A stretch of 64,000 bases of DNA, taken from sequence record PQ571307. One strand, given 5' to 3'. Below are positions 16,895 through 17,504 of this stretch, piece by piece (positions within the stretch are counted from its first letter, which is position 1; every line of letters starts with the position of its first letter). This DNA is from Shigella phage SF1-1. Position numbers and translations under genes: made by a program. The notes beneath the pieces are model-generated. The model searched no databases. It worked only from the letters and a program-made list of their open reading frames with translations, and had not been told where the DNA came from.

Positions 16895-16991
16895 TCTTTT
16901 TTATTTTCTTTTTGCTTGCTATATATAAAGGAAAGGGCTATCATCTTTCTACCGCGCCAACCAGGGCGCACAACAAAGAAAGGGCGACACC

Positions 16992-17264
16992 ATGACAAAT
17001 ACTACATTACACCTTATGCACTCATTGGGCTGGCAAGGCGGCACCGTTCACCAGGTAGCAAGCCATACAGGGTTAACCGTGATGGAAGTCCTAGACTTAC
17101 ACACTTTCCCAATATCAAATGTTATAGCCCACGGACACGGCTTAAAGGCGGTAAAAATGTGTGTAGTGGATATATGCGGCGCAGCCTATTCAACGTGTGG
17201 TTATAAACCGGATCGGATCTCCTTTTGGCGTGGCGTCTTGGACGCACAAAATGTGCAAAAATAA
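16992..17264 (+). CDS. hypothetical protein in GC-rich island (opposite strand to neighbours)
   Basis: 90 aa ORF; local GC clearly higher than surroundings; candidate promoter TTGCTA-17-TATCAT upstream; weak RBS. Confidence 0.25.
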   Translation: MTNTTLHLMHSLGWQGGTVHQVASHTGLTVMEVLDLHTFPISNVIAHGHGLKAVKMCVVDICGAAYSTCGYKPDRISFWRGVLDAQNVQK

Positions 17265-17504
17265 TGTTGACAACCTGGCGTAAGCTGGGCTAAACTGTAC
17301 CCATACAGAAGAGTAAACGCCACCCCACGGCGTAAAGGCGGGGCTAACATACCAGGGCGCTGGTTGGAAGGTTGATCGCCGGTAGGCTGGGCGCTATATA
17401 TTTGTAAAGAAATGTAAAGATAAAATAATCGCTTGCTTTCCTGGCTGGATCTGTTATTCTTATTACATGGCGAGGGGACACGGGAGCGCGAGACAAACAC
17501 CGCC

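Follow-up and report, generated by a model that had tools for sequence, protein, structure and literature searches.

A probable structured RNA gene next to an origin-like region in Shigella phage SF1-1

The GC-rich island at positions 16900–17500 of the Shigella phage SF1-1 sequence studied here (record PQ571307, 64,000 nucleotides, hereafter the window) most probably contains a genuine structured RNA gene, as judged from comparative sequence analysis. The RNA, which we call RNA1, is 93 nucleotides (nt) long, follows a predicted promoter, P1, and lies upstream of an AT-rich region with the layout of a replication origin. It appears to represent an RNA family not described before, in a phage control region of a familiar type. 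The window is that of a Phapecoctavirus-like (subfamily Stephanstirmvirinae) E. coli myophage, and the 1.5 kb round the island are 95–98% identical to the Phapecoctavirus genomes ASO2A, ukendt, ESCO5 and KKP 3954.

Promoter and structure of RNA1

The promoter and the RNA are located as follows.

17267–17296, plus strand: promoter P1, TTGACA-18-TAAACT, found by scan with 10 of 12 positions as in the consensus, directly after the stop codon of an open reading frame (ORF)
17304–17396, plus strand: RNA1, 93 nt, 60% GC, conserved structured non-coding RNA, following P1

A preliminary description of the island, made from its letters, had reported a TTGACA-18-TAAACT promoter downstream of the ORF and had suggested that the island could be a structured non-coding RNA. 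Both suggestions hold: the promoter is there, its hexamers are kept in all 38 distinct homologous upstream regions (on average 9.7 of 12 positions agree with the consensus, with a spacer of 17–18 nt), and what follows is a non-coding element with covariation. The spacer sequence varies freely among homologues, and in 37 of the 38 regions the −10 hexamer ends 4–9 nt before the conserved block of RNA1. By its sequence, P1 has what is expected of a sigma-70 promoter, namely conserved hexamers near TTGACA and TATAAT, 16–18 nt apart. It is also kept where the upstream ORF is unrelated or missing, which indicates that it belongs to RNA1 and not to the ORF. We predict that P1 is a sigma-70-type promoter which drives RNA1.

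The structure of RNA1 was worked out on an alignment of 41 sequences with RNAalifold, after which a pseudoknot was added by hand and the pairs were counted. RNAalifold returns a long irregular hairpin closed by CGGCG/CGCCG. The pair counts give the following elements.

17323–17326 (CCCC) with 17340–17343 (GGGG), plus strand: pseudoknot
17328–17332 (CGGCG) with 17318–17321 (CGCC) or with 17377–17381 (CGCCG), plus strand: CGGCG helix
17347–17355 with 17360–17367, plus strand: hairpin
17338–17339 with 17371–17372, and 17344–17345 with 17369–17370, plus strand: short pairs

In the alignment, 90.2% of the cells are paired, versus 19–45% when the partners are slid, and six pairs have changed on both sides. 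The covariation score is 0.136 versus 0.070 in shuffled alignments, and none of 500 shuffles reaches it. The compensatory changes exceed both the slid and the shuffled controls, as expected for a structured RNA, with the caveat that the sequences share ancestry. Pair 47–69, for instance, is A-U in 27 sequences and G-C in 14, and is never unpaired; pair 24–39, which belongs to the pseudoknot, is C-G in 30 sequences, A-U in 10 and unpaired in one. Pair 49–68 is A-U in 28 sequences and G-C in 4, and pair 50–67 is C-G in 38 and G-C in 3. Pair 36–76 is G-U in 29 sequences, which fits the plus strand only, the strand that is read by P1. The loop of the hairpin ranges from 4 to 12 nt, and two lineages have an entirely different sequence in place of the hairpin, and this too is paired. 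In short, the stems co-vary, the loops vary, and the unpaired nucleotides are invariant.

The invariant CGGCG can pair either with the CGCC on its 5' side (97% paired) or with the CGCCG on its 3' side (100%), and neither helix varies informatively. As to an H-type pseudoknot, the pairing of the loop with downstream sequence is supported, but the stem CGCC/GGCG never co-varies and GGCG has an alternative partner.

It could be argued that the GC-rich stretch codes for a protein on the minus strand, either an ORF at 17201–17500 (99 amino acids, aa) or one at 17344–17496 (50 aa). Both ORFs exist, some records annotate short genes there, and minus-strand frames are often open across the RNA1 core. 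However, GC-rich sequence lacks stop codons by composition alone, the indels are mostly not multiples of three and there is no codon periodicity. The lengths of the core (80–91 nt) fall in all classes modulo 3, so that neither strand encodes a conserved protein. This explanation is almost certainly wrong.

Distribution and identity of RNA1

A sensitive DNA search with 16900–17520 as the query returned 234 phage records. In the Vequintavirinae (PVP-SE1, SSE121, GAP31, 4MG, CR3, phiTE, the Klebsiella Mydovirus and an Erwinia phage), the match covers only what comes after the promoter, with 72–85% identity over RNA1, and most records annotate nothing under it. RNA1 is conserved far beyond its neighbours, across Stephanstirmvirinae, Vequintavirinae and environmental relatives; the alignments show invariant blocks of 10–20 nt, without three-base periodicity, that start a few bases past the −10 hexamer. 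It is among the best-conserved non-coding sequences that are common to rV5-, PVP-SE1- and phAPEC8-like phages.

A gapped pattern made from the invariant blocks was found in 24 viral contigs, 26 metagenome contigs and 2 contigs of metagenome-assembled genomes (MAG), nearly all of 137–153 kb. This pattern replaced a shorter one, GNAAGGTNNATCGCCGG, whose matches in viral contigs were mostly due to chance. In total, 45 distinct versions of the core were collected. In 185,579 species genomes, the gapped pattern occurs in just two short MAG contigs, one of which is a chance match. A search of 5,426 complete E. coli genomes gave no match to RNA1, which is thus specific to phages; a host-derived origin was rejected on this ground.

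A covariance model was built from the RNA1 alignment. In the window it has a single match, 17304–17396 on the plus strand (95 bits), and it matches once in each of 57 phage loci (71–109 bits), including a locus (L107) that is absent from the training set. It has no match in 12 control loci, chance matches of the pattern included; two pattern matches (L157 and L164) were rejected as RNA1 because the model does not recognize them. RNA1 is thus present in a single copy per genome in rV5-like and phAPEC8-like phages. Several records carry spurious short genes over RNA1, an annotation that the model can correct.

The covariance-model search that the preliminary description had called for succeeds with a model of RNA1 itself, and not with one of a known family. 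Rfam 15 (4227 models) gives no match in the whole window at gathering thresholds; over 16850–18100 it gives only spurious AT-rich matches (E 1.4–3.1), none over RNA1, and over 17295–17550 there is no match at E ≤ 10. ARAGORN finds no tRNA or tmRNA in the window or in eight homologous loci. A connection with tRNA genes had been considered since record OY978796.1 (Klebsiella Mydovirus) has three annotated tRNA features at the homologous locus, 2069–2764; it was abandoned as ARAGORN does not find these tRNAs, and the feature coordinates of that record are probably misplaced. Misplacement may also explain the label "HNH endonuclease" that a sister record has under the match. The identification of RNA1 with pseudo-ToxI, a non-coding RNA locus of phage phiTE, was also rejected: pseudo-ToxI is at a different phiTE locus, and neither RNA1 nor the putative RNA2 described below contains tandem repeats of about 36 nt as in ToxI. 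A literature search returned no description of RNA1 and nothing specific on non-coding RNAs of these phages.

Composition and genomic setting of the island

The preliminary description had stated that the local GC content is clearly above the background, which a sliding-window analysis bears out. The GC content of 16900–17500 is 0.474, compared to 0.391 for the whole window, and the maximum of the 64 kb falls in the island when the scan length is 600 nt (start 16931, that is 16931–17530; 0.492, z 4.15) or 400 nt (start 17001; 0.502, z 3.87). With 200–300 nt, an equally high peak occurs within a minus-strand coding sequence (15561–15870), so that at this small scale the island is extreme without being the only such peak. 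The coding sequence in question, 15355–15915 on the minus strand, reaches 0.51–0.54 over 200–300 nt at about 15561; its product is an acidic protein with a glutamate-rich C-terminal part, and the peak reflects the composition of the coding sequence and is no island.

Within the island, it is the non-coding part, 17265–17400 (0.559; 0.516 over 17265–17520), that has the largest GC excess, and not the ORF (0.465). The stretch which follows, 17521–18020, has the lowest GC content of the window (0.284, z −4.1); the most GC-rich and the most AT-rich stretches of the window therefore adjoin. The flanking genes, small early genes on either side, are all on the minus strand, and the ORF between them is on the plus strand, opposite to them as first described. 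The gene that converges on the island, 18069–18611 on the minus strand, codes for a NADAR-domain protein (Pfam E 1.8e-35). Plus-strand replication genes lie to the right: a helicase at 29.0 kb, a primase-helicase at 50.6 kb and the DNA polymerase at 53.7 kb.

The idea that the island is horizontally acquired DNA, whose GC content would betray a foreign origin, had been put forward in the preliminary description. The composition is atypical, the window's highest at the 400–600 nt scale, and the C-terminal half of the ORF is unlike that of the closest relatives and nearer to sequences from a Klebsiella phage and a metagenomic phage. However, the ORF family, P1 and RNA1 are found at the same place in two phage subfamilies, and this synteny largely refutes the idea; the top GC content is in RNA1 itself (0.60), where G-C pairs build the helices, and E. 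coli genomes contain no match. What is left of the proposal is the exchange of a part of the ORF by recombination. The acquisition of the whole island is very improbable and, like minus-strand coding, essentially excluded.

The ORF upstream of P1

16916–16944, plus strand: candidate promoter P0, TTGCTA-17-TATCAT, 9 of 12 positions as in the consensus (scan), upstream of the ORF
16992–17264, plus strand: ORF of 90 aa, ATG start, all-helical protein

The ORF is a real, conserved gene. It had been correctly placed in the preliminary description, and it belongs to a conserved family; the promoter-like site that had been noted upstream of it is also found, as P0, and is weaker than P1. The N-terminal 35 aa are conserved and common to the nearest relatives (LGWQGGTVHQVA..TGL.V..L.L), whereas the C-terminal half is a swapped variant, closer to sequences of a Klebsiella phage and a metagenomic phage than to the closest relatives. 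The family has at least three C-terminal variants. Recombination inside the gene is indicated, with exchange of a part of it. No helix-turn-helix domain is recognizable in the product by profile or by fold. An obligatory partnership between the ORF and RNA1 was considered and rejected, since Seunavirus and Mydovirus have an unrelated 60-aa ORF upstream of RNA1 and the Erwinia phage has none.

P2, RNA2 and the terminator-like hairpin

The terminator scan and the alignments show no terminator after RNA1. The sequence downstream contains the following elements.

17401–17420, plus strand: A/T-rich block TTTGTAAAGAAATGTAAAGA (two TGTAAAGA repeats), near-invariant in the alignments, directly upstream of P2
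17433–17460, plus strand: candidate promoter P2, TTGCTT-16-TATTCT, with conserved hexamer positions and a spacer that varies; 8 of 12, below the scan threshold
17465–17545, plus strand: putative RNA2 from P2, with the conserved block GAGACAAACACCG at 17490–17502, ending at an AU-rich hairpin and a U-rich run

The A/T-rich block, at which Tandem Repeats Finder reports a tandem 10-mer in PVP-SE1, may be an UP element or a protein-binding site. P2 is nearer to the consensus in relatives, for example TTGACC-17-GATACT. RNA2 has no counterpart in the most distant clade. The helix that would close it, between its 5' and 3' parts, is 85% paired, and 65 of 500 shuffles reach its covariation score; since this covariation is not significant, RNA2 is less certain than RNA1. 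The hairpin at 17512–17534 has nine pairs (three of them G-C) followed by TATCATTTAC according to the terminator scan; it is AU-rich, shows no covariation and coincides with a DNA palindrome, the first of the AAATGAGAATGATTATCATT type described below. The conserved block of RNA2 matches only itself in the window (up to two mismatches, either strand).

Several relatives have a partial second copy resembling P2/RNA2, about 7 kb from the main locus and on the opposite strand (L006 4308–4438, L011 4972–5105, L074 1138–1288 and L111 4012–4129); the counterpart in the window is a weak match, 11141–11203 (E 0.1). These copies are probably generic early-promoter cassettes.

The 5' AUGGCG of RNA2 (17467–17472) can pair with CGUCAU. 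This is the 5' arm of the hairpin at 17512–17534, so that the helix and the hairpin exclude one another, which makes an antiterminator/terminator alternative possible. RNA1 and RNA2 could then form a cis-acting switch, similar to a riboswitch or an attenuator, that would decide on read-through at 17512–17534; the two partners of CGGCG, CGCC and CGCCG, would fit such a mechanism. However, there is no plus-strand gene downstream to regulate, the covariation of the RNA2 helix is not significant, and nothing resembles any riboswitch class of Rfam. We regard such a switch as improbable.

Fur-box-like palindromes

17521–17628: three to four palindromes of the type AAATGAGAATGATTATCATT, 29 nt apart (repeat families D1 and I1–I2)

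These palindromes resemble the consensus of the E. coli Fur box, GATAATGATAATCATTATC, with 16 of 19 positions identical at 17526 and 14–15 of 19 at 17520, 17578 and 17584. According to a rough estimate, about 0.07 sites with at least 16 of 19 are expected in the window, and two are observed. The same word is listed among the putative FUR sites of Acinetobacter baumannii (PMC3055841). The same type of palindrome also occurs elsewhere in the window, at 9440–9466 and 9621–9644.

The palindromes are kept in one to four copies in the enterobacterial relatives. Environmental relatives have different palindromes at the same place, and for this reason a phage-encoded protein is at least as likely as Fur to bind there. 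The resemblance raises the possibility that a lytic phage makes use of a metal regulator of its host; a literature search for Fur boxes in strictly lytic phages returned nothing specific.

A possible replication origin

Two more features lie downstream of the palindromes.

17641–17850: AT-rich zone with two 72-nt direct repeats 138 nt apart (repeat families D2 and D3), inside 17521–18020
17986–18012: GC-rich hairpin with T runs on both strands, read from the sequence and not found by the terminator scan

The hairpin at 17986–18012 marks the end of the plus-strand island and also of the minus-strand operon that converges on it; in ASO2A, a minus-strand terminator is annotated at the homologous place. 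Relatives have direct repeats of their own at the position of the AT-rich zone: a 67-nt period in PVP-SE1, three copies of 71 nt in the Erwinia phage, and six copies of GATCGAGACCC in phiTE. Many of these clade-specific repeats (PVP-SE1, Mydovirus, Erwinia phage, phiTE) hold A5–6T5–6 tracts. An iteron-type origin would have several evenly spaced direct repeats. Repeats are clear in the relatives; the window has only the two 72-nt repeats and three palindromes spaced by 29 nt.

We tentatively propose, by analogy with known origins and with somewhat less than even confidence, that 17265–18010 is the control region of a lytic replication origin in which RNA1 forms the structured 5' domain of the transcript. 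A T4 origin is made up of a promoter with an A+T-rich unwinding element downstream of it; in oriE, which relies on an early promoter, the iterons are evenly spaced (PMC3016281); priming by a transcript in ColE1 is mentioned in the same paper (PMC3016281). We favour the origin because same-direction host-type promoters that lead into AT-rich repeats are the layout of T4 oriF, oriG and oriE; in the window, the promoter and the A+T-rich stretch downstream of it that make up an R-loop origin of the oriF/oriG type are present as sequence. In this mechanism, the host RNA polymerase would transcribe from P1 and P2 into the AT-rich repeat zone, and thereby open or prime it. Since RNA1 has no terminator, transcripts from P1 probably continue through P2 and RNA2 to the hairpin at 17512–17534, past which transcription would enter about 500 bp of very AT-rich DNA with direct repeats. 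RNA1 would serve as a structured 5' domain for folding, processing or factor binding, and either host Fur or a phage protein bound to the palindromes might gate read-through.

A more specific proposal is that RNA1 founds a new class of phage RNA, a pseudoknotted 5' domain of an origin transcript whose read-through is gated by Fur on the palindromes. This is a long shot; if it were true, origin firing in a strictly lytic phage would be tied to the iron status of its host.

Several observations weigh against the reading of RNA1 as the structured domain of an origin transcript. Regarding the structure, the two alternative partners of CGGCG are indistinguishable, unrelated pairs of RNA1 columns also co-vary in the same data set, and a small number of clade-level events may account for much of the covariation. 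An all-against-all covariation scan, which is dominated by such clade-level co-variation, was for that reason discarded as stand-alone evidence. Since the sequences are related and unrelated columns co-vary, the support comes from the combination of contiguous helices, slid controls, variation in loop length and replaced hairpins. The folding of the single sequence 17297–17525 is unremarkable (z +0.8 for the plus strand, +1.0 for the minus strand); the sequence past P1 was called structure-prone at first, which single-sequence folding does not bear out but the comparative analysis of RNA1 does. Regarding the origin, the repeats are few in the window, where Tandem Repeats Finder reports none, and the nearest strand switch is 11 kb away from the locus, the helicase, primase and polymerase genes 12–36 kb. 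An analysis of skew in rV5 gave only transcription-linked switches and no origin (PMC3606486); the same genome paper shows a "non-coding" box without ORFs (PMC3606486). Last, the conservation of the unpaired nucleotides of RNA1 is stricter than a mere primer needs.

Alternatively, RNA1, with or without RNA2, could be a free-standing, trans-acting early small RNA (a decoy for a protein, for example, or an RNA for host takeover or anti-defence) which happens to lie beside an unrelated regulatory or repeat region. Invariant unpaired nucleotides combined with co-varying stems and variable loops are typical of RNAs that bind ligands or proteins, and a strong host-type promoter is immediately upstream. 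Environmental clades in which P2, RNA2 and the GAGAAT palindromes are missing or have been replaced still have RNA1. The neighbourhood is made of small early genes, including that of the NADAR-domain protein, and a related phage uses a non-coding RNA against host defence, from another locus (PMC3475682). On the contrary, RNA1 lacks a terminator of its own, and no partner or target turned up, the RNA2 block matching only itself in the window. Moreover, repeat arrays with A/T tracts are right downstream of RNA1 in every clade examined, which suggests a functional link between the two. We consider the free-standing small RNA the main and a strong rival of the origin, with a somewhat lower probability.

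Another hypothesis is that the conserved element acts as DNA, either as a cluster of protein sites or as a hairpin for single-strand initiation or primosome assembly, exposed once the adjacent AT-rich DNA opens. The element adjoins the origin-like region, the covariation of the hairpin fits folded single-stranded DNA equally well, and the invariant stretches could be protein sites. However, the block starts 4–9 nt past a conserved −10 in 37 of the 38 lineages, for which a transcript is the simpler explanation, and G-U pairs, which would be G-T in DNA and are less well tolerated there, are frequent. A DNA element is therefore unlikely.

RNA1, were it a primer or regulator, would bring a new structured-RNA solution to the activation of an origin; a trans-acting RNA1 would represent a new family of phage small RNAs with unusually strict sequence constraints, and such strictness would suggest a specific molecular partner. 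Phages like rV5, PVP-SE1 and phAPEC8 have been isolated widely and are under study for phage therapy and biocontrol. A literature search on them returned no transcript map and nothing specific on origins; with its single-copy RNA and the adjacent origin-like anatomy, the locus is a concrete candidate for both questions.

Other features of the window

The early genes have stereotyped cassettes, on the minus strand at 16805–16882 and 16515–16600, made of the following in this order: a promoter, a GC-rich hairpin followed by a U run, which resembles a terminator, a Shine-Dalgarno sequence and the ATG. The order of these elements places the terminator-like hairpin inside the 5' leader of the following gene. 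Similarities to parts of such cassettes are visible in the 5' leader of RNA1 (ACAGAAGAG) and at the start of RNA2 (ACATGGCG).

The longest stretch of the window without an ORF of at least 60 aa is 9483–10726 (1244 nt), which is AT- and T-rich and has many short repeats. Many deposited Phapecoctavirus genomes begin or finish inside its equivalent, and two of them share their start base. It may be a physical genome end or a packaging region. A "repeat_region" annotated in a relative near this non-coding region (9.4–10.7 kb) was considered and discarded; it is only 34 bp long and no terminal repeat.

Comparison with known systems

The leader of T4 gene 32 contains an H-type pseudoknot. RNA1 is similar in that CGCC/GGCG and CCCC/GGGG can form a compact pseudoknot of this type, with an A-rich third loop and then A/U-rich sequence. 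Unlike the gene 32 leader, with which it shares no sequence similarity, it has no regulated gene downstream, and it has an additional conserved hairpin and an invariant 3' segment.

Pseudo-ToxI is a non-coding RNA locus of a phage that also carries RNA1, the Pectobacterium phage phiTE. It differs from RNA1 in sequence and in its architecture of tandem 36-nt repeats (PMC3475682), and in position: pseudo-ToxI is at 106.7 kb, between genes 202 and 203 (PMC3475682), while the RNA1 locus of phiTE is at 39.6–40.3 kb and adjoins phiTE_079, 67 kb away.

The palindromes at 17521–17600 match Fur boxes at 14–16 of 19 positions and have the 9-1-9 symmetry; they are close to listed putative FUR sites such as TTAAATGAGAATCATTTTCATTTAT (PMC3055841), and a 25-nt FUR motif is described for gamma-proteobacteria. 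Contrary to usual Fur boxes, they are downstream of a transcript and not over a promoter, and the phage is lytic.

We know of no conserved pseudoknotted domain in the origin transcripts of T4. Like T4 oriF, oriG and oriE, the candidate origin belongs to a large lytic myovirus and has host-type promoters that lead into non-coding DNA which is AT-rich and bears repeats (PMC3016281), with small early genes alongside. It has no sequence similarity to the T4 origins, and its repeats are units of 67–72 nt or motifs of 11–19 nt, and not 12-mers.

The primary origin of T7 has two tandem promoters followed by an AT-rich region. Tandem promoters of the same direction are also upstream of AT-rich DNA here, but they are of the sigma-70 type and not of the T7 type. 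The RNA II of ColE1 is a structured pre-primer of about 550 nt, and it illustrates that an origin transcript can need a specific fold. RNA1 is different, since it has 93 nt and a pseudoknot, and no RNase H site or equivalent of the antisense RNA I was seen; what RNA II provides is a precedent for an origin transcript whose fold matters.

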